From a virus, in IMG/VR virus record IMGVR_UViG_3300045988_142085, positions 128,001-192,000 of that record: a stretch of 64,000 nt of DNA; one strand, written 5' to 3'. The position numbers were made by a program, and so were the translations under genes. Below, one piece after another: positions 4,762 through 17,026 of this stretch (position 1 is its first letter; each line of letters begins with the position of its first letter). The notes beneath the pieces were generated by a model. That model searched no databases. It had not been told where the DNA came from and saw only the letters and a list, made by a program, of their open reading frames with translations.

Positions 4762-5298
4762 TTATCTTATAAAAATGTTAGAAACCTTTTCGATATTATC
4801 GATAATCAAGTTATTTTCTAGAATAGATACTATAATTGTTTGATCGATATCCTTATAGATACCAGAATTTTTTACGATAAATAAACTAGAGAATTTATTA
4901 TTATTTTTAAAAACAATATTAATTTCATGAGCATGAGATAAATCTATGTTTTGTTTGACAGGGATTTCGACCCAATCATAAGAATTATCGCTTGCGCTCA
5001 ATAATTTTATTCCGTTATATAATTTACCGGACAATTCTCTACCGTTAAGTTCGATAGCATTTTCGTCGATATTTATATTCCCGACAATCTTTTGAGTATC
5101 TAAAGTATCGACAGAATAATCATATCGCTTAGTTTTTTTATAATACTGATTATCGTCGATCGTATAGTTTTCAATATTAAGAAAAACCATATTATCGACA
5201 ATATCATTTTTTCTAGTATTTAAATAATCTTGAATTTCGATAATTTTATTTTGCAAATCGGCAAGGTTAACAGAATCATCATTTATTAAACTAATCAT
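4762..5298 (-). CDS. Small fibre-like protein, tandem family member
   Basis: 178-aa ORF with an N-terminal coiled-coil-like stretch (LADLQNKIIEIQDYLN) and an N/I/D-rich C-terminal part. Confidence 0.45.
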   Translation of the reverse strand: MISLINDDSVNLADLQNKIIEIQDYLNTRKNDIVDNMVFLNIENYTIDDNQYYKKTKRYDYSVDTLDTQKIVGNINIDENAIELNGRELSGKLYNGIKLLSASDNSYDWVEIPVKQNIDLSHAHEINIVFKNNNKFSSLFIVKNSGIYKDIDQTIIVSILENNLIIDNIEKVSNIFIR

Positions 5299-9160: not shown

Positions 9161-11100
9161 ACTTTCTTAACAATCATCTTAGAATCAGATTCTTTTTTGC
9201 CAGATAAATAGACTGTTTCGCCATACTTAATATAAGGCAAATTATTTAAATAAATAGAACTGAATACGATCAAATCAATTTCGACGCCGCCACCAACATC
9301 GCCTTTACAAAATGCCATAAGATTGCCGGACTTATCTTTTCGTTCATCGACTTTGGTGATTCTAACTTTAACGTTTTCTACTTCTGTTTTATCTTCCATA
9401 GAAAACCATTCTGGTGTATATGTTACCGGGCAATTTAATGTGTCCATTTCAAAGCTCATAATAAGTTCCTTTCCATAATTATCATTATTTAAACGTTCAT
9501 CTTTATCTTTTCTTAAATCATAAAACTGATTCATTAATTTTAAACGATTACTTTCGATATTAGAGAAAGCACCCGACTTAATTAAAGATGAACCAACACG
9601 TTTATTAAACGCTTTTTTACCAATTTTATTCATAGCATCTTCTAAAGAAGTGTAAGGTCGATGTTCAATTATGGCAGGTATGGAAGATAGACCCACGCCC
9701 TTAATGGACCCAAGACCAAATAAGATAGTGTTTCCATTAGGAGTAAAATCGAGATTTGATACATTAATGTCCGGAACTTCAACGTCGATCCCTTCCTTTC
9801 TAACCAATGGAATATAACGAACTAAATCTTCTAAAGATTGCATCGATAAATATGCAGCAAAGAATTCTACTGGATGATACAATTTAAGCCAAGTAGTAAG
9901 CATACTGGTAAATGAGTAGGCTACAGCATGAGATTTGTTAAATAAATAATTTGAATATCCTTGTATTGTTTCAAAATAATCTTCCATTTCTTTCTCAGTA
10001 TAACCATTAGCAAGAGCACCTTTAATTTCAGGACCATATTTACCTTTAGGGTCATACCAAGGAGCTTTATCGTCTTGTTCCCAACCTTCTGGACCTTCAC
10101 AATTTTTCTTGCCATAAATATGACAACGTTTAAGCATAGGCATTTTATCTGCTTTTTTCTTGGCCAGAATTTTTCTAGAAAGTGAATCTGCTTGGTTATC
10201 ATCAAAGCCAGAAACTTGTTTAGAGATCATCATAATCTGCTCTTGATACGGGATTACAGAATATGTATTACTTAAAATATTATCGATACCGCGTAAAGGA
10301 GCAGTTAATTCCTCTTTACCTTGTTTACGCTTAGCATATTGATGGTGCATATTTGCACTTAATGGGCCCGGTCTCAAAAGTGCCGTGGTTGCCGCAATAT
10401 CGTCGAAGCAAGTTGGCTTCATCTCTTTTAAATAATCTTTAAACATATCAGATTCTAATTGGAACACGCAATCTGATTTAGCTTGTGCCAATAATTTATA
10501 TAATTTTTTATCTTCGATATCGAAGCTATCATATAACCATTGAACATCTTTATTTAAATGTCTTAATGTTGTTTCTATTATGGATAATGTTTTAAGACCG
10601 AGGATGTCGAGTTTTGCTGTACCTAGTTCTTCACATTCAGTACCTGTAAATAACGTAATTGTTACGCCGTCAGCATCAGTACGTGTCGGAAAATAATCAT
10701 CGACACGACAAGGCATTGCTAGAATACCAGAAGCATGAACACCGAAGTTACGTTTAAGACCTTCGAATGCACGAGCCAATCTAAATAATTCTTTATTGTC
10801 GACTTCTAATTTCTGCCATTTAGTATATAAAGATTTTTCTGTTTCGTTGCCATCTTTTAATGCATCATAATGTTTAAACTTTGGTTGAGGAGGTACGACA
10901 TCTTTAAAGTCGTCAATAATTTTAGATAATGCATTCATTTTATCGAATGGAATTTTAAGTGCGCGACCAATATCTTTTAGGCCAGATTTAACGCCCATTT
11001 GAGAATATGTACCAATATGCGCTACGTTACTTTCGCCGTATAAATCTTTAATATGTTCAATAACTTTGTCTCGACCAAAGTAGCTAAAATCTGAATCTAT
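9148..11100 (-). CDS. dnaE: DNA polymerase III alpha (DnaE-type), exon 2: C-terminal ~650 aa with palm C-part, fingers and OB fold
   Basis: The frame is open upstream of the first Met back to 11100 and encodes IDSDFSYFGRDKVIEHIKDLYGESNVAHIGTYSQMGVKSG..., which is the canonical continuation of the PDIDIDF palm motif. No start codon or RBS at the 5' end. An in-frame TAA lies immediately upstream, inside the intervening sequence. Confidence 0.8.
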   Translation of the reverse strand: MDSDFSYFGRDKVIEHIKDLYGESNVAHIGTYSQMGVKSGLKDIGRALKIPFDKMNALSKIIDDFKDVVPPQPKFKHYDALKDGNETEKSLYTKWQKLEVDNKELFRLARAFEGLKRNFGVHASGILAMPCRVDDYFPTRTDADGVTITLFTGTECEELGTAKLDILGLKTLSIIETTLRHLNKDVQWLYDSFDIEDKKLYKLLAQAKSDCVFQLESDMFKDYLKEMKPTCFDDIAATTALLRPGPLSANMHHQYAKRKQGKEELTAPLRGIDNILSNTYSVIPYQEQIMMISKQVSGFDDNQADSLSRKILAKKKADKMPMLKRCHIYGKKNCEGPEGWEQDDKAPWYDPKGKYGPEIKGALANGYTEKEMEDYFETIQGYSNYLFNKSHAVAYSFTSMLTTWLKLYHPVEFFAAYLSMQSLEDLVRYIPLVRKEGIDVEVPDINVSNLDFTPNGNTILFGLGSIKGVGLSSIPAIIEHRPYTSLEDAMNKIGKKAFNKRVGSSLIKSGAFSNIESNRLKLMNQFYDLRKDKDERLNNDNYGKELIMSFEMDTLNCPVTYTPEWFSMEDKTEVENVKVRITKVDERKDKSGNLMAFCKGDVGGGVEIDLIVFSSIYLNNLPYIKYGETVYLSGKKESDSKMIVKKVSLS

Positions 11101-12294
11101 CTTTTACACCCTAGCTTTCGCTATATTTATTAAGGAATAGACCATATCTTCACCATATTTTTATTTTTAAAATAAAAACTTAGGTTGCTCCATTTCGGGC
11201 TTATCACCCTACGTCCCTTTGGACTGGCCGTTGAACGTTCCCCTATTCGAGGCTTCGCTGCTGATTTTCCAATCTTGTCTTTTTTTAGCATATCACACTT
11301 TTGCTTATTTCATCAATATGTTGTAGCAAGACAAGCTCTAAGGATGTTCCAGCAATTTAGAGCTCTTTAAACTTTAGATTTCTCTAAAGCACGACTATTG
11401 TTTAAATTGCATAAATCTAAATATCTTTGATATTTTCTATTCAAATATATCGTTGCATTTTTATATAATAGATCTAAAATTTTTTGTGTTTTTAAGTTTC
11501 CACCAAATTCTAAAGACATAACTTCTTGATAATCTTTTCTTTTATAATATTTATTAGCAGAAAAGCCAAGTTTTTCTTCTATATAATTATTAACAAAATC
11601 AAGAAATTTTTTAGTTGAAACTAATTTAAAAGCATAACTGTTACTTAATTCTGTGTTGGTGTGAGCAATAGAACCATTCCCATCAAAATATCCTCGTATA
11701 AAATCTGATACATAATTTTCTAATAAAGATATGTCTGGAGGAATTAAAATATTTGTTTTGTGTTCTACTAAGTTATATTTTAATAAATCATTAAACATAA
11801 TTTCAGAATAATATATTATTCTACTATAGCTATTTTTAGAATAAGAGTTTTTAGTTGCTTCATATGTTTTAATGGGATGATTACTCTCTAAACTTTTATT
11901 TAATTTTTCTAAATGAGTATAATCACAAGTAGACAATGTAAGACCTACTTTGTATGAATTATTATTTTTAGAAATATATCCATCAGCCATTAAAAAACCT
12001 AACCAATATGCTTTTTCTTCTGTGTCTATTTTATTGAAAAATTTTTCATTAAAATGATAGCGTGAATTAGCTTCTCTATGAGATCTAGGCGTTAAATTTT
12101 TCTTAATAAAGTATGAAACTTTTCCAGTACTAATACCTAATTCTTTTGCTATATATGGTGATCCATGTTTTTTATTATATAAATCTACAATTTTATTTTG
12201 AATTTCTTTTGATAATTTTGACATATATGTTACCTCATATTTATATTGATTTATAAATATTATAACATATATAATTATCTTATGCAATCATATA
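11101..12294 (-). mobile_element. Intervening sequence (probable group I intron, ~1194 nt) interrupting dnaE; carries a LAGLIDADG homing endonuclease ORF
   Basis: Exon 1 ends ..CCA GAU (last nt U) and the IVS ends ..UAAAAG (last nt G), matching group I conventions. Joining restores LPD|IDSDF in frame. The 3' 266 nt (11101..11366) is GC-richer and non-coding. The P1-P9 fold was not verified. Confidence 0.5.
11367..12224 (-). CDS. LAGLIDADG homing endonuclease, double-motif monomeric type, intron-encoded
   Basis: Motifs WLGFLMADGYI and IRGYFDGNGSI about 100 aa apart. Probable start is Met22 of the listed ORF (ATG 12224..12222) with GAGGU 8 nt upstream. N-terminal HTH-like region. Confidence 0.8.
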   Translation of the reverse strand: MSKLSKEIQNKIVDLYNKKHGSPYIAKELGISTGKVSYFIKKNLTPRSHREANSRYHFNEKFFNKIDTEEKAYWLGFLMADGYISKNNNSYKVGLTLSTCDYTHLEKLNKSLESNHPIKTYEATKNSYSKNSYSRIIYYSEIMFNDLLKYNLVEHKTNILIPPDISLLENYVSDFIRGYFDGNGSIAHTNTELSNSYAFKLVSTKKFLDFVNNYIEEKLGFSANKYYKRKDYQEVMSLEFGGNLKTQKILDLLYKNATIYLNRKYQRYLDLCNLNNSRALEKSKV

Positions 12295-13686
12295 ATCTGG
12301 CAAGCCTGTTCTGTCGATAGTCAAAAAACGACCGAACAGTAAATCATATTTAATAGGATCGATATTTTTAGTGATGCCAATACACCATAATACTAAACTA
12401 CCTGCAGCGCTCCCGCGTCCAGGACCAGTCATTACACCATTATTATCGGCCCAGTTAATATATTCACGAACGATAAGCATATAATCAGCGAAATCTTTAT
12501 AGTTAATAATGTTAAGTTCATACGCTAAACGTTGTTCATATCGTCTAATATCGTTAGCGATATAATCATATCTTTTTGCTAACTCATATAAACCTTTGTA
12601 AGCTAGTTCACGCAATTTACGTTTAGTATTTTTAACGCCAGGAAGTTTAGGCATTAATGGTACATCACTGCCTAATTTATATTCGCCGACTTTATTTGCG
12701 ATTTCTTGAGTATTATGCATTGCTTCTAAATATAAAGCATATTTTTCACGAGCAACACTTACTTCAGTTTCAGACGTATTAATTAAATATTTAAATCCGT
12801 CTTGCATTTCTTCTTCGTTTTTAAGCCAGAAGTTATGATCGTATTTCATACGGTTAGGATTATAAATATCGGTGCCAGTGCCGACACATACTAATACATC
12901 ATGATCTTTATTATCCTCTTTGAGGACATAATGTACATCGCTTGTCGCAACGAGTTTAATATTATGCTTCGTCGACATTGTTAAATAAAAATTATTTACT
13001 TTGACTTGGTCGTCGAATGCATTAGGTTGAACTTCGAGATAGAAGTCGTCACCGAAAATATCTTTATATTCTAAGATAAGTTCTTCGGCTTTTTCTAAAT
13101 CGTCTTTACGAACACGACTTGCTACCATATTCGCAACACATGCTGTCGTACAAATAACGCCTTCGCTATATTTACGAAGCATCGGCATATCGAACAAAAA
13201 GCGCCCGTTGTATGTACATACTTTAGCAGATTCACTTTGTAATTTAATTAAATTATTTAACCCTGTTTGATTTTTAGCTAATAAGATTAAATGATATTGT
13301 CTTGTGTCGTACATATGTTTTTCTGCACGAGCCTTAATATCTTTAATGCCTTTAACGCCTTTTTTGCCGGACGCTAAATCTTCAGCTTCTTTTTCTGTTA
13401 AGTCTCCGGCTTCTTTCGCCTTCAAAGCCGCATCGGCCCAGCGTTCTTCAACAGGTTTAGATAATGAAAGAGTGTCCCATGTTTGATATCCTTCATAACC
13501 TAAGATAGGCTTAACACCTTGTTTTTTACATTCTTGTAAAAATTCATAAATACCGCCCATATGATTATGGTCTGTGATGGCTAAACTTTCCATACCGAGT
13601 TCTTTAGCACGGCTAACTAACTTCGGTATATGACAATAGCCATCTAAAAAGCTATATGATGTATGTACATGTAAATGCGTAAACAT
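12295..13686 (-). CDS. dnaE: DNA polymerase III alpha (DnaE-type), exon 1: PHP domain plus N-terminal part of palm
   Basis: MFTHLHVHTSYSFLDGYCHIPKLVSRAKELGMESLAITDHNHMGG is a PHP domain. GPGRGSAAGSLVLWCIGITKNIDPIKYDLLFGRFL is a PolIII alpha palm signature. AAGGAGG RBS before the ATG at 13686. The coding frame terminates 5 codons into the IVS. Confidence 0.85.
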
Positions 13687-13748
13687 TTTATTATTCCTCC
13701 TTATAAAAAATATAATTGTTTATCAACAAATATATAATATTATGTATA

Positions 13749-14987
13749 CTATTCTAACCAATAAATTTTATTAAATTTCCAAATTAATTTACATTTTTGT
13801 GCGTTTACTTTTTTACAGTGTTTAGTTTTTGATTGAAAATTCAAAACTAATTGTTCTGGGTATAAAGCTGTAACATAGCCTGTGTGAATCTCTCCATTTT
13901 TATACGTATAAGAAACTAAATCTCTATGCTTAATCCCTAGTACATTATTAGTTTTTGCTTTTGATTTTCTCCTCATTGGTTTAATAGTCCATTCTTTTAT
14001 ATTGCAAGAATCTGGAATGTCATTTGTAATACATATAGCATCATTACTATGAGATTTTTCTATATTCCATTCAATTCTTTTATTCGCAGTTGCGCCGCCA
14101 TTAGTCAAATGCAATAATCCTAATTCAGATATTTTATTTCGTAAATAATTTTTACCTTGCATAACATGCATTGCATAATCGAATCGTTTAGGCTTAGAAT
14201 TAATTATTTTAAAATATTTATCTTCAAAATCTTTTTCTTTACCTTTTGTTTTGTCATGACATTTGAAACAAAGAGTAATTAAATTTCCAATAGTATCTGC
14301 TCCATGATATTTTCTTGCTCTTATGTGATGTACTTCTAATTTGCAATTAGATTTTCCACATTCTTGACATTTATAGTTATCACGAATAATAGTTGCTTTT
14401 CTAAGATTTTCATCTAAACGATTAGATTTTTGATATTGCCATTTATAAGGTTTATAATCGTCTGTCATTGCACGAATATCAATACAAACATCTTCAAGAT
14501 AATATTCTTTAATATTTATCCATTTATTTAGTTGATATAATACTCTTAAAATAGCATCTTTCTTTTGTTTAATAGTTGGTGTTAATCTACCGACTTTTTT
14601 GGAAGATGAGCGATTATTAAACCTCATTGGTCTATGTCTTTTATGGTAACGATGATATTGTCTATATCTACGTCTAGTATCCATCAAATGTTTCACATCT
14701 TGACGTTGTTCAATAATCCCTTTAAATACTACTTTATTTTTAGTAGAACATTTCTGAACAATAGCTATACCAACATGTATAGAACCATCGTCTATACCAC
14801 AAATTATATAACTTTTATCATTTTCATTAAATTCAACTTTTTTATTTAGTTGAATTACCATTGGGTATTTAGATTTTAATTTTGCTCTGCCTTTTCTAAT
14901 TAGATACCAGCCTTTATTCACTTTTGTTGGCGCTAATGGTTTATTATCTTTATCAATTACAAAGCAATATTCAATTTTATTTTCCAT
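13749..14987 (-). CDS. iscB: IscB-like RNA-guided nuclease (OMEGA family; RuvC-I / Arg-rich bridge helix / RuvC-II / HNH / RuvC-III), solo with no TnpA
   Basis: N-terminus [47 protein letters not shown] is PLMP-like. The segment [17 protein letters not shown] is Ruv[24 protein letters not shown] is the bridge helix. LEDVCID is Ruv[38 protein letters not shown] is [13 protein letters not shown] is RuvC-III. RBS AAGGAAGG before the ATG near 14987. The listed ORF extends 81 codons further upstream, probably spurious read-through of the omegaRNA region. Confidence 0.8.
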
Positions 14988-15260
14988 TTCTGGAAACCTT
15001 CCTTTCGGAGTATTTTTCGTCTTGCCAATGTCGTGGATGGTGCATGTGTTTCTCTGTTGTCTATACAGGACGTTAGTATAGTTTCTTGATTGGCACTCAC
15101 AGAGCTTCAGACTGACGAGCACATCTAAAGGTGTGTCTTTAACCTTTTCCATAACGTAGTTCATATCTGCAGCATATCTTTCGATAGCAGCAATCACTAA
15201 GGCTAGAAACCTATTATCAAGCAAATACAAATAAGAAATATAATATATATTCGCCCACTT
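14975..15260 (-). ncRNA. Candidate omegaRNA scaffold for IscB (predicted from position and composition only)
   Basis: IscB omegaRNAs are encoded immediately 5' of, and overlapping, the iscB start. This ~280-nt interval is GC-richer than its surroundings and has local complementarity (e.g. CUCUGU...ACAGAG). The guide would lie at its 5' end near 15245..15297. Confidence 0.3.
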
Positions 15261-15297
15261 TTTCGTATTTTTATTTATAAAATAAATTACTTAATAA

Positions 15298-16962
15298 TTA
15301 GTCCTTAATTATACTTTTTACATTTAAAGTATATAGCCTAGGCTTCATGAAGTTTTTCTCGATATCGCCACACATCGTAATTCTATCGCCAACTTTAATT
15401 CCGAGATCTCCTAATCTCCATGCCCAGATACTTAATTTTGTTTTTCCGTCGAATACTGTATACAATATATTATCAGGATTATTTCCGCTCGGTTTAATAT
15501 CGAGAACACTTAAATCTTTTATTCTAACTTGTGGTTTCGTAAAAGTTAAATTGTCGAACGAGAATAAATTAAATGATTTATAAGATTCAACTGTTAAATC
15601 AGACAATTTAAGATCGATATATTCAGGTTCTTTAATCTCGATAGTAACTTCTTCAGGTGGCACATAGGATGCGATTTTTGCGCTCAGAGCGAGTTTAAAC
15701 TCGTTTTGCATATCTTTATATATCGTAAAGCCACAAGCGGCAGCATGGCCACCATATGAAGCTACAGAAGGTTCATTAAACAACAACCAATCTAATGGAT
15801 ACGTATTACTTCGAGCAGAACCATGAACTACTTCACTATCCGACAATCCAACAAAACTAGGTTTGCCGCTATATTCTTGTAAGCGTCCTGCAAGTATACC
15901 GATAATACCGACCGGTATTTCATCGTTAACGACAAGAGCTATTTCGCTATCATCGTCTTGCTTATCGTATTGTTTAATAATCCTTTCGCTAAAATCTTTA
16001 GTCAATTCTTTGCGTCGAGTATTATATTCTTCGACAGTATTACATGTTTCGATCGGTTCTTCACTTACATCGAATAATTTAATAGAAGCACCGATATCGA
16101 ATAATCGAGAACATGCATTTAACCGAGGAGCAATTTGCCAAGATACAAGATCAGCCGTAATAGCTTCCTTAGTTAGCATATCCAAGAATACTCGTAATGT
16201 GTTCGGTATTTGTTTTTTCTGAATCTGATTAAAACCTTTACGAACGATAGCTTGATTAATGTAACTGCTTAACGGCATTACGTCGGCAATAGTACCGATA
16301 GCCGTTAAATAAAGTAATTTATCGCTTTCATAATGATTATAGCCTAATTCATTTTCTATCGCTCTGCAGAAATAATAAGCGACACCAGCGCCGCATATTG
16401 CTTTTGCCCAGTGATCGCTTTCGGTTATATGTTGGTCAACGATAATTGTATCTGGTAAAATTTCTTGCGGTAAATGATGGTCAGTAATAAGAACCGGAAT
16501 ATTGTATTTCTTACAAAGTTCGACTTCTTCGACTTTAGTTATACCGTTATCGACAGTCATAATAAGCGGTTTAATTCGTCGCTCATATTTTTTATTAACG
16601 TCTTCGATAAACTTAACACTTAAACCATATCCATCGCTTCGTTCTGGAAAATATACTTCGCTATGAGTCGGAACAATTTTATTTAAAAACTTTTTCATAA
16701 TCGTTCCGCTTGTCATTCCATCGACATCATAATCGGCATATACATAAATATCTCGACCTTCTTTAAAGCATTGCACTAAAAACTTAGCTGCTTTATCGAT
16801 ATTTACAATCGGTTCTGTTTCATCGATGTTGAGTATCTTATCTTGGTCGTATAGAATATTATATGCTACGTCTAATGGAATTTGTTTTAGGGCGAGTATT
16901 TGCGCCACTAAATCGTTAACTTTTAAAGTTAACCTGTACTTATCTTTATCTATCATAAGCAA
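15298..16962 (-). CDS. recJ: RecJ-like single-stranded DNA exonuclease (DHH/DHHA1 phosphoesterase)
   Basis: DHH motif VLITDHHLP, Asp-rich metal site YADYDVDGMTSG, and DHHA1 signature YGGHAAACGF. Confidence 0.8.
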   Translation of the reverse strand: MLMIDKDKYRLTLKVNDLVAQILALKQIPLDVAYNILYDQDKILNIDETEPIVNIDKAAKFLVQCFKEGRDIYVYADYDVDGMTSGTIMKKFLNKIVPTHSEVYFPERSDGYGLSVKFIEDVNKKYERRIKPLIMTVDNGITKVEEVELCKKYNIPVLITDHHLPQEILPDTIIVDQHITESDHWAKAICGAGVAYYFCRAIENELGYNHYESDKLLYLTAIGTIADVMPLSSYINQAIVRKGFNQIQKKQIPNTLRVFLDMLTKEAITADLVSWQIAPRLNACSRLFDIGASIKLFDVSEEPIETCNTVEEYNTRRKELTKDFSERIIKQYDKQDDDSEIALVVNDEIPVGIIGILAGRLQEYSGKPSFVGLSDSEVVHGSARSNTYPLDWLLFNEPSVASYGGHAAACGFTIYKDMQNEFKLALSAKIASYVPPEEVTIEIKEPEYIDLKLSDLTVESYKSFNLFSFDNLTFTKPQVRIKDLSVLDIKPSGNNPDNILYTVFDGKTKLSIWAWRLGDLGIKVGDRITMCGDIEKNFMKPRLYTLNVKSIIKD

Positions 16963-16987
16963 CCGCCTTTCTCATATATTATAACAT

Positions 16988-17026
16988 ATAAATAAGAAAA
17001 AGGCGAGCATTATTCGCTCGCCTTCA
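16988..17026 (-). terminator. Rho-independent terminator after the sigma-factor gene
   Basis: Minus strand AAGGCGAGCG-AAUAAU-GCUCGCCUU followed by UUUCUUAUUUAU. The sigma-gene stop codon lies in the loop. Confidence 0.55.

Follow-up and report, generated by a model that had tools for sequence, protein, structure and literature searches.

A 1604-bp iscB and omegaRNA insertion element between recJ and a dnaE-like gene of a jumbo phage, with a predicted guide in recJ

Genes and features of the locus

The window analysed here is the whole 64,000-nt stretch at positions 128,001 to 192,000 of the IMG/VR virus record IMGVR_UViG_3300045988_142085. A 1604-bp mobile element is inserted in it between recJ and a dnaE-like gene, and its cargo consists of an omegaRNA and iscB only. 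No transposase was found in the 1604 bp or among the genes neighbouring P0016, and a second IscB element was not found in the window. The features are listed below.

13703..15306, minus strand: mobile element of 1604 bp, inserted between recJ and the dnaE-like gene
13749..14987, minus strand: iscB coding sequence, ATG at 14987, 412 aa plus stop
14997..15004, minus strand: ribosome-binding site of iscB, AAGGAAGG, within or beside the conserved UCC-GAAA-GGA hairpin (15009-15000) that lies at the scaffold 3' end
15305..~14976, minus strand: omegaRNA scaffold, ~330 nt, with 5' start AGGACUAAUU and 3' end at or just past the iscB start codon
15207..15304, minus strand: stem P1, pairing GGACU (15304-15300) with GGUUU (15211-15207) and UUAUUAAGU (15297-15289) with GCUUGAUAA (15222-15214)
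15024..15203, minus strand: long-range pairing of GCC (15203-15201) with GGC (15026-15024), corresponding to the HEARO pseudoknot
15306..15321, minus strand: predicted 16-nt guide, 5'-GUAAAAAGUAUAAUUA-3', in flanking DNA (the last codons of recJ)
13696..13701, minus strand: predicted TAM AGGAGG on the far flank of the element, also the Shine-Dalgarno sequence of the dnaE-like gene (ATG 13686)
15300..15305, minus strand: element-internal junction motif AGGACU, at the TAM place of the occupied site, including the start of the recJ stop codon

An IscB is recognised by a PLMP/RRXRR N-terminus, a split RuvC with inserted HNH, no REC lobe and a length of about 400-500 aa. The phage protein has this N-terminus and this split RuvC with inserted HNH in 412 aa, and its RuvC motifs (GIDDGS 64-69, LEDV 164-167 and SHSNDA 312-317) and HNH motif (EVHHI 218-222) are intact. 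Among structure-database sequences it matched HfmIscB of PDB 9K2Z over its full length (E 1.8e-235) and OgeuIscB, IsrB and Cas9 partially. By homology, the phage IscB/omegaRNA locus belongs to an already characterised IscB family, with HfmIscB-2 as a close homolog. HfmIscB-2 and its omegaRNA scaffold are listed with the TAM RNRRRD and marked as tested (Kannan et al. 2025, Nat Biotechnol, PMC13180657, Supplementary Table 1), and we infer from the 81% identity of the two proteins that the phage IscB would likewise carry out RNA-guided, TAM-dependent DNA cleavage.

The omegaRNA scaffold and its covariation

A HEARO RNA or omegaRNA is expected on the strand of iscB, within about 500 nt upstream of it or overlapping its 5' end, and here the scaffold (15305..14976) and the iscB ATG (14987) are arranged in this way on the minus strand. 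HEARO (RF02033) is the Rfam family of IscB omegaRNAs (Weinberg et al.; Altae-Tran et al. 2021). An Rfam search of the whole window at gathering thresholds gave no match. With permissive filters on short stretches, HEARO was matched at 15218..15010 (minus strand) over the full model span of 1-211, so the covariance-model comparison proposed in the original prediction returned a significant hit (31.3 bits, E 1.4e-4), but one that lies below the Rfam gathering score of 83; HEARO hits down to 15 bits have been accepted if they lie upstream of iscB (Meers et al., bioRxiv 10.1101/2023.03.14.532601). A group I intron match also appeared in the Rfam search, likewise only with permissive filters on short stretches.

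Like HEARO, the phage RNA immediately precedes an HNH/RuvC IscB gene and shares its strand, and the full model length could be aligned. Its core is kept as the AGCC...GGC long-range pairing, the ACACC...GCUCUGU hairpin and the CAUUGGCAAGACGAA 3' segment. Unlike the model, P1 of the phage RNA encloses an AT-rich insert of ~75 nt with hairpins at 15287-15273, 15269-15224 and 15250-15238, and the first helix of the model is left unmatched. Because this insert splits P1, the Rfam model misplaces the 5' end of the omegaRNA, and the scaffold is ~330 nt rather than ~250 nt, whereas the model has 211 positions and the RNAs upstream of iscB average 242 nt (Meers et al.).

An alignment of 43 loci supported 17 helices with 86 pairs, which were 97.5% paired and had compensatory changes at 34 of the 86 pairs, whereas slid alignments were 29-46% paired and none of 500 shuffles was as good. 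Compensatory changes fell in P1 (columns 32/118 and 38/112) and in six of the nine pairs of helix 4. The long-range GCC/GGC pairing was kept in 100% of cases, including a GG/CC double swap in one lineage (L040/L041/L049/L050), and it aligns to the [[[[[ ]]]]] columns of RF02033. Helix 17, the UCC-GAAA-GGA hairpin, was invariant in 43/43 sequences and therefore was not tested by covariation. That the helices keep pairing through compensatory changes points to ongoing selection on the RNA. The complementarities cited in the original prediction are not the pairs supported by covariation: GGC at 15026-15024 covaries with GCC at 15203-15201 and not with GUGCC, and for columns 236 and 282 of alignment A1 the compensating changes lie in partners other than those proposed.

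The single-sequence minimum free energy of the region was not unusually stable (z = -0.66). The GC content was 41-42% at 15000-15200, 20-30% at 15200-15300 and 20-31% in most of iscB. The segment 15000-15200 thus stands out from iscB but not from the genome, because the flanking phage genes themselves have 32-45%. The scaffold of HfmIscB-2 is 86.4% identical to that of the phage, and both begin with AGGACTAATT and end at the iscB start codon. Judged by family-specific covariation and by this published, experimentally used scaffold of a close homolog, which together settle its identity, the DNA upstream of iscB encodes a structured omegaRNA of an already characterised IscB family, placed directly upstream of iscB and overlapping its 5' end as originally proposed.

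Boundaries of the element and its empty sites

A megablast of 12300-17000 against deposited phages gave no match, and related DNA was reached through protein-seeded IMG/VR searches. The extent of DNA similarity to 67 loci agreed with the element boundaries, which can equally be written as 13698..15301, because AAGGA occurs at both junctions. In 16/16 sibling jumbo-phage contigs the recJ|dnaE junction was unoccupied and read ...AAAAGTATA(A/T)T(C/T)AAGGAGGAATAG..ATG with nothing in between; the empty site is GTAAAAAGTATAATTA|AGGAGGAAT and the occupied junction ...|AGGACTAAT. Thus, a defined mobile unit, as expected for a transposon of the IS200/IS605 type (ISC), is absent from otherwise identical sites in all 16 siblings. 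Four of the 16 sibling contigs carried the element at other positions. It was found at at least 5 positions within one phage lineage and at about 25 overall, and its movement is therefore recent. At 22 of 25 sites the longer upstream open frame lay on the iscB strand, and this orientation bias, together with the geometry of boundary and guide, is in line with Meers et al. (bioRxiv 10.1101/2023.03.14.532601).

Hairpins lie near both ends of the element, and the ends read as inverted repeats (19 nt, 95%, in L012). In three loci (L002, L006 and L015) the junctions had repeats of 9-12 nt, which a simple 5-nt TAM/TEM model does not explain. An IS607-like serine-recombinase mechanism was considered by analogy and may be at work, with GG at both junctions as in the IS607-type GG core. 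The GG at both junctions and the inverted-repeat ends are features that would go with mobilisation other than by a Y1 TnpA, which is possible but not expected.

Predicted guide and TAM

Conservation among the 43 loci, which have unrelated flanks, ended sharply at 15305/15306, and the same AGGACTAATT boundary recurred in about 25 unrelated genomic contexts. The published scaffolds of HfmIscB-2 and QtwtIscB1 also start with AGGACTAATT, that is, at 15305 here. Because conservation stops at this point, the guide is predicted in the adjoining recJ sequence at about 15321..15306, and at about 25 sites a variable predicted guide begins in the same way at the predicted 5' end of the RNA, where the transposon end stops. 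The register of the guide is uncertain by about 1-4 nt and its length (13-20 nt) is assumed from other IscBs, for which PMC13180657 gives 16 nt as the optimum (OgeuIscB) and about 13-15 nt as the effective length. A second guide match with up to 2 mismatches was not found in the window, the sole match being the site itself. If the boundary were set after AAGGA instead, the guide would move 4-5 nt downstream and end at about 15302-15301. This was rejected as the main reading, since AGGACTAATT opens the published scaffolds and, with the boundary placed there, AGGAGG fits RNRRRD.

At 25 distinct insertion sites the far flank read A-G-G-[A/G]-[G/A]-[G/A/T], and 24 of the 25 fit the published HfmIscB-2 TAM RNRRRD at position 6, as does AGGAGG at the present site. 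A conserved transposon-adjacent motif on one flank thus doubles as the predicted TAM, and in the loci an ATG follows it 5-10 nt downstream. In the occupied site, AGGACT fails RNRRRD since position 5 is C; that a transposon can encode a motif distinct from its TAM is a concept taken from Meers et al. (bioRxiv 10.1101/2023.03.14.532601).

All 16 empty sites carried a guide-like sequence with 1-4 mismatches, mostly TAM-proximal, followed by AGGAGG. Natural sibling alleles at the target included ATATTCA, ATGTTTA and ATAATCA variants. The target-site polymorphism of the sibling phages placed the site only in the top 5-10% of windows, and target escape by these phages is not claimed.

Self-homing as the proposed mechanism

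We are highly confident that the locus is a non-autonomous IscB insertion element of 1604 bp in a ~230-kb phage, with an omegaRNA scaffold, a predicted recJ-derived guide and a proposed homing to the empty site. The original prediction had left a host locus, a competing phage or a self/homing site as possible targets, and the empty sites with guide-like sequence and AGGAGG favour the last, so that the element is most likely self-homing. A consensus promoter scan gave fewer sites than shuffles and none upstream of the scaffold inside the element, and an internal promoter is therefore not claimed. The omegaRNA would most likely be made by read-through from recJ and then trimmed, because no own promoter is detectable upstream of the scaffold and recJ lies on the same strand. 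The trimmed RNA would carry about 16 nt of recJ (15321..15306) as guide at its 5' end. IscB with this omegaRNA would recognise a guide-matching sequence followed by the TAM AGGAGG, a combination expected only where the element is absent, namely at the recJ|dnaE junction of a sister genome or in the own genome after excision. The occupied site would be spared because the guide match there is followed by AGGACU. IscB would cut the empty site with its RuvC and HNH domains, and recombination repair from the occupied copy would then restore or spread the element. Whether the 16 sibling genomes would be cleaved is uncertain, because each has 1-4 guide mismatches.

A further reading, which we find possible but would not expect, is that the element acts as an RNA-guided homing endonuclease between co-infecting gut phages of ~230 kb and not merely in transposon retention, that its Shine-Dalgarno-core TAM (AGGAGG) steers it into co-directional gene gaps, that the TAM-proximal substitutions are escape alleles and that the mobiliser is perhaps other than a Y1 TnpA. 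If so, read-through in co-directional gaps would supply the guide while the downstream gene keeps its ribosome-binding site, and the cluster of TAM-proximal substitutions in the siblings would reflect an ongoing contest of drive and resistance. As a close homolog was tested and solved before, this locus leaves the knowledge of IscB and omegaRNA unchanged. It offers a clean natural case in which the IscB guide, the TAM and self-avoidance can be read from sequence with 16 empty-site controls, and a phage lineage with recent movement of the element is a convenient system for testing RNA-guided homing between phages.

Alternative readings

The element may be a stranded relic that no longer homes or moves, its upstream DNA being kept as a transposon end or iscB leader, or its IscB may have been co-opted as an anti-phage weapon or a regulator. 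Such an explanation would suit an element without transposase, with no perfect guide match in 16/16 sampled empty sites and with subterminal hairpins and inverted repeats, which might serve as signals in the DNA. Not every member of the IscB family has been shown active either, since no TAM is given in the published table for the close relative QtwtIscB1, which yielded none in that screen (PMC13180657). Against this stand the intact ORF and catalytic motifs, the compensatory changes that keep the RNA helices paired, the recent movement recorded in the many insertion positions and the fact that IscB tolerates guide mismatches but depends strictly on the TAM (Meers et al., bioRxiv 10.1101/2023.03.14.532601), and we consider a relic or a co-opted IscB improbable.

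It was also proposed that the omegaRNA carries its guide at the very 5' end, at about 15245..15297, just after the recJ stop. The first part agrees with the unrelated flanks that begin upstream of AGGACTAATT, but the coordinates do not, because 15245..15297 is conserved scaffold (the P1 5' strand and the hairpin insert) with compensatory changes across loci that have unrelated flanks, and therefore cannot be a locus-specific guide. The element does not begin just after the stop but reaches 8-9 nt further, to 15305/15306, and supplies the recJ stop TAA (15300..15298) itself; in the annotation, the recJ end and stop codon should be marked as coming in part from a mobile element. A guide at 15245..15297 would go with an RNA made from an internal promoter and a target in a host locus, a plasmid or a competing phage unrelated to the insertion site. 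The AT-rich stretch 15224-15300 might hold such a promoter and the Rfam HEARO alignment begins only at 15218, but the consensus scan detected nothing promoter-like on the minus strand there, P1 is formed by 15304-15289 with 15222-15207, and the published scaffolds of close homologs include the stretch from AGGACTAATT on. This reading is very unlikely, and the recJ-derived guide at about 15321..15306 is preferred.

The six-frame ORF runs from a TTG start at 15230 to 13749 on the minus strand (493 aa), and, as originally noted, its Met82 is the ATG at 14987, preceded by a strong ribosome-binding site (AAGGAAGG, 15004..14997) at the correct spacing. Pfam domains (RRXRR, 8e-43, 146.7 bits; HNH, 3e-10, 40.5 bits) were found only from residue 90 of the 493 aa, and the iscB homologues have 412-415 aa and cover 84% of the query, so the first 81 codons indeed lack an IscB counterpart. 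In 65/65 related loci checked, the frame upstream of the ATG was open for just 5-40 codons before in-frame stops. Minor-allele fractions by codon position were flat upstream (0.055/0.077/0.056), compared with 0.082/0.046/0.230 inside iscB; thus, the extension is not conserved as protein. That the 81 codons are a real N-terminal extension with protein-coding conservation, for which only the open frame from 15230 in the window speaks, can practically be dismissed, and on these alignments they are a chance open frame overprinting the omegaRNA. The annotation should be changed from the 493-aa ORF to 412 aa, with a ~330-nt omegaRNA and a 16-nt guide added.

Relation to known IscB systems

The phage IscB and HfmIscB-2, 81% identical from end to end, have the same domain order and their catalytic motifs at the same positions. 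The phage copy differs in lying at another genomic site and in 45 of the 331 scaffold positions aligned, most densely in the AT-rich insert of P1. Two of the related loci (L027 and L032) contain the first 200 nt of the HfmIscB-2 scaffold exactly.

Like the phage element, ISGst5 of Geobacillus stearothermophilus (IS200/IS605 family; Meers et al.) is non-autonomous and carries an omegaRNA and iscB only. In both, the omegaRNA is bounded by one transposon end with the abutting flank as guide, a TAM on the far flank makes the empty (donor-joint) site the only target, the element-internal motif resembles yet differs from the TAM, and the element is co-oriented with the upstream gene. The two differ in the TAM, which is AT-rich in ISGst5 (TTCAT) and purine-rich in the phage (AGGAGG, the Shine-Dalgarno sequence of the downstream gene), and in the host, which is a jumbo phage and not a bacterial chromosome. 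Unlike in ISGst5, no cognate TnpA lies in or adjoins the phage element, the ends resemble inverted repeats and the 9-12-nt junction repeats occur in some copies; according to Meers et al. (bioRxiv 10.1101/2023.03.14.532601), only about 1.5% of iscB genes have tnpA next to them.

By analogy, OgeuIscB-omegaRNA (PDB 7XHT, 7UTN) offers the likeness of an RNA-guided RuvC and HNH nuclease with a large omegaRNA for the REC lobe, a 5' guide and a 3' TAM. It is a distant relative (E about 1e-22, partial alignment) of 496 aa compared with 412 aa in the phage, and it has the TAM NWRRNA and a shorter scaffold of different sequence. PDB 9K2Z holds a chain near-identical to the phage IscB; the construct has EVAHI where the phage protein has EVHHI, which looks like an engineered change at the histidine pair.

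Coding sequence of iscB

The IscB element lies on the minus strand between two phage genes, in the following order.

16962..15298, minus strand: recJ (DHH/DHHA1/RecJ_OB), upstream neighbour of the element
15230..13749, minus strand: six-frame ORF of 493 aa, between recJ and the PHP/pol III alpha gene
start 13686, minus strand: PHP/pol III alpha gene (dnaE-like), downstream of the 493-aa ORF

The Pfam RRXRR and HNH domains of this ORF begin at residue 90 at the earliest, ATG 14987 is preceded by AAGGAAGG at 15004..14997, and the best 120 of about 1800 homologs of the whole ORF were 387-452 aa long (nearly all 405-424 aa) and spanned 82-87% of the 493-aa query, so the real protein is a 412-aa IscB. 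The original prediction had treated the first 81 codons as non-coding, and this was borne out. Among 65 related loci, only 5 (5 loci), 23 (51), 24 (1), 28 (5) or 40 (3) codons were open upstream of the iscB ATG, and variation there at codon positions 1/2/3 was 0.055/0.077/0.056, without periodicity. The first 600 nt of iscB gave 0.082/0.046/0.230, the third-position excess expected for coding sequence.

Structure of the omegaRNA

Rfam at gathering thresholds gave no match in the whole window. A permissive search of 14700-15500 aligned the entire span of the HEARO model (RF02033) to minus-strand positions 15218..15010, with 31.3 bits (E 1.4e-4; below the gathering score of 83). A protein-seeded scan of IMG/VR recovered 67 loci encoding IscB relatives of 59-92% identity, and the DNA similarity of these loci to the window ran from ~15305 to ~13690-13750 and ended there. 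Upstream of iscB the aligned flanks were unrelated, and conservation set in abruptly at (A)AGGACTAATT(A/G)TTAAG. RNAalifold analysis of 43 loci predicted 81 pairs, and 32 of these showed compensatory changes; with one more hairpin there were 86 pairs, 97.5% paired, 34 of which had changed on both sides. None of 500 shuffles matched the observed pairing values, and when the 3' partners were slid by 1-3 columns, just 29-46% of cells paired. A structured RNA is present upstream of iscB, and the main idea of the original prediction was right, as indicated by the HEARO match, the covariation and a published homologous scaffold. The single-sequence fold was uninformative on structure (z = -0.66). 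The RNA structure begins at G15304, and two of its helices are as follows.

GGACU 15304-15300 and UUAUUAAGU 15297-15289 with 15222-15207, minus strand: stem P1, the long first stem, by covariation
15203-15201 with 15026-15024, minus strand: long-range GCC/GGC pairing; one lineage has a GG/CC double swap

P1 encloses an AT-rich insert of ~75 nt, itself with covarying hairpins, because of which the Rfam model misses the first helix and sets the 5' end at 15218. The guide had been expected at 15245..15297; this segment cannot be the guide because it sits within P1 and the insert and is conserved among unrelated insertion sites. The complementarities quoted earlier were also replaced by others: the covariation partner of GGC 15026-15024 is GCC 15203-15201 rather than GUGCC 15096-15092, and where alignment columns 236 and 282 change, the compensation comes from columns 201 and 246 and not from the CUCUGU/ACAGAG pairing. 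The reported GC-richness is genuine against iscB and the AT-rich insert (41-42% versus ~20-31% across most of iscB), but the adjacent phage genes themselves have 32-45% GC.

Boundaries, empty sites and predicted target

A RecJ scan yielded 16 contigs of sibling phages, with 93-96% amino-acid identity and, in several cases, a length of ~230 kb. Their recJ runs ...AAAAGTATATTCAAGGAGGAATAG, followed by the dnaE ATG within 0-6 nt, and the element was absent from this junction in 16/16, so the window carries an insertion, of 1604 bp, with AAGGA at each junction (15306-15302 and 13702-13698). The element contributes the recJ stop codon (15300-15298) and encodes no transposase. Four sibling contigs, recovered by both the IscB and the RecJ scan, bear it at other positions, which means that it has moved within the phage lineage. 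Overall there were ~25 distinct insertion sites, whose far flank reads A-G-G-[A/G]-[G/A]-[G/A/T] with an ATG 5-10 nt on; at 22/25 the longer of the upstream open frames is the one on the iscB strand.

The 16 nt upstream of scaffold start A15305, GUAAAAAGUAUAAUUA (15321..15306), are the predicted guide. At the empty site a guide-like sequence is followed by AGGAGG, which matches the transposon-adjacent motif (TAM) RNRRRD; at the occupied site the guide sequence is followed by AGGACU, which fails it at position 5. Within the window we found no other guide match with <=2 mismatches and no second IscB element. Sampled empty sites (L068-L083, about 5130-5160) mismatched the guide at 1-4 positions, mainly the four TAM-proximal nt, and guide position 15 was one of just 8 four-allele columns among 2262 in the sibling phages. 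Among 16-nt windows the target ranked in the top 10% for diversity, and among 6-nt windows in the top 5%; this is a raised but unexceptional level, suggestive, though not significantly so, of escape or relaxed constraint.

The element ends read as subterminal inverted repeats (in L012, 2706-2724 and 4251-4269: 19 nt, 95%). Their window counterparts, 15287-15273 and 13748-13711, overlap hairpins, and the left repeat, inside the P1 insert, may serve the mobilising enzyme as a DNA signal in addition to its role in the RNA. In locus L006 the left end is the usual one and the right end is unrelated; both junctions (near 2683 and ~4250) carry the 9-nt CATTTGGGA. Junction repeats in L002 (12 nt) and L015 (9 nt) likewise exceed the 5-nt AAGGA common elsewhere, and such 9-12-nt repeats are unexplained by a simple TAM/TEM model.

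Relation to known systems and proposed mechanism

The window IscB matched PDB 9K2Z 'HfmIscB' over its full length (E 1.8e-235); its matches to OgeuIscB, IsrB and a Cas9 were distant. HfmIscB-2, from an infant faecal metagenome, has TAM RNRRRD and a scaffold from AGGACTAATTATTAAG to ...CCAGAGATGGAAAATGAA; QtwtIscB1 (Ruminococcus sp. AF18) and CspIscB share the scaffold start and have no TAM entry (Kannan et al. 2025 Supplementary Table 1, PMC13180657). The HfmIscB-2 scaffold was 86.4% identical to window 15305..14976 and its protein 81% identical to the window IscB, and L027 and L032 carry an exact copy of the first 200 nt of this scaffold. The system belongs to an already characterised IscB/omegaRNA clade; given its phage setting, Shine-Dalgarno-like TAM and set of natural empty sites, it serves as a tidy example and is not a discovery.

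The locus has exactly the geometry described by Meers et al. (bioRxiv 10.1101/2023.03.14.532601), in which the transposon end bounds the omegaRNA upstream of iscB, the abutting flank is the guide, the TAM is on the opposite flank so that the donor joint alone is cut, and an internal near-TAM motif, unequal to the TAM, shields the occupied site. They also reported that elements share the orientation of the upstream gene, that tnpA rarely adjoins iscB (about 1.5%), and that no iscB-serine recombinase link was found. GG at both junctions of the window element recalls IS607-type elements.

The evidence best supports a non-autonomous IscB element that would have its omegaRNA made by recJ read-through. 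Upstream of the scaffold, a consensus promoter scan found no promoter-like site inside the element, and the sole candidate in recJ was weak (15549..15521). Transcription and processing would leave the last ~16 nt of recJ as the guide; the IscB-omegaRNA complex would then cut an unoccupied recJ|dnaE junction, and homing would be completed by recombination copying the element into the cut.

Homologs and neighbouring elements

The homolog seen most often, P0016 (its name taken from Ruminococcus sp. TF12-2), occurs at loci L084-L090, on human gut metagenome contigs of 209-383 kb. Its surroundings are a phage-like replication module (Sak single-strand annealing protein, DnaB, DnaG, PD-(D/E)XK, pol III alpha); it is co-directional with its neighbours, with an upstream gap of ~305 nt and no transposase nearby. 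Isolated ~140-kb Staphylococcus phages carry full-length homologs with 51-59% amino-acid identity (LC557520.1 126135-127367; OQ129426.1 94145-95377; OP940114.1; others), for which GenBank gives only the labels 'HNH endonuclease' or 'hypothetical protein', and presumably no omegaRNA annotation.

In the dnaE-like gene directly downstream of the IscB element, the PDIDxDF motif is split by a ~1.2-kb insert.

10998-12293, minus strand: insert with a LAGLIDADG ORF and a group I intron core
11367-12287: LAGLIDADG ORF, within the insert
11414..11119, minus strand: group I intron core (RF00028), Rfam 59.4 bits, exceeding the gathering score (50); not returned by the whole-window gathering search

Exon 1 of dnaE therefore lies between two different homing-type elements, the IscB element on one side and this insert on the other.
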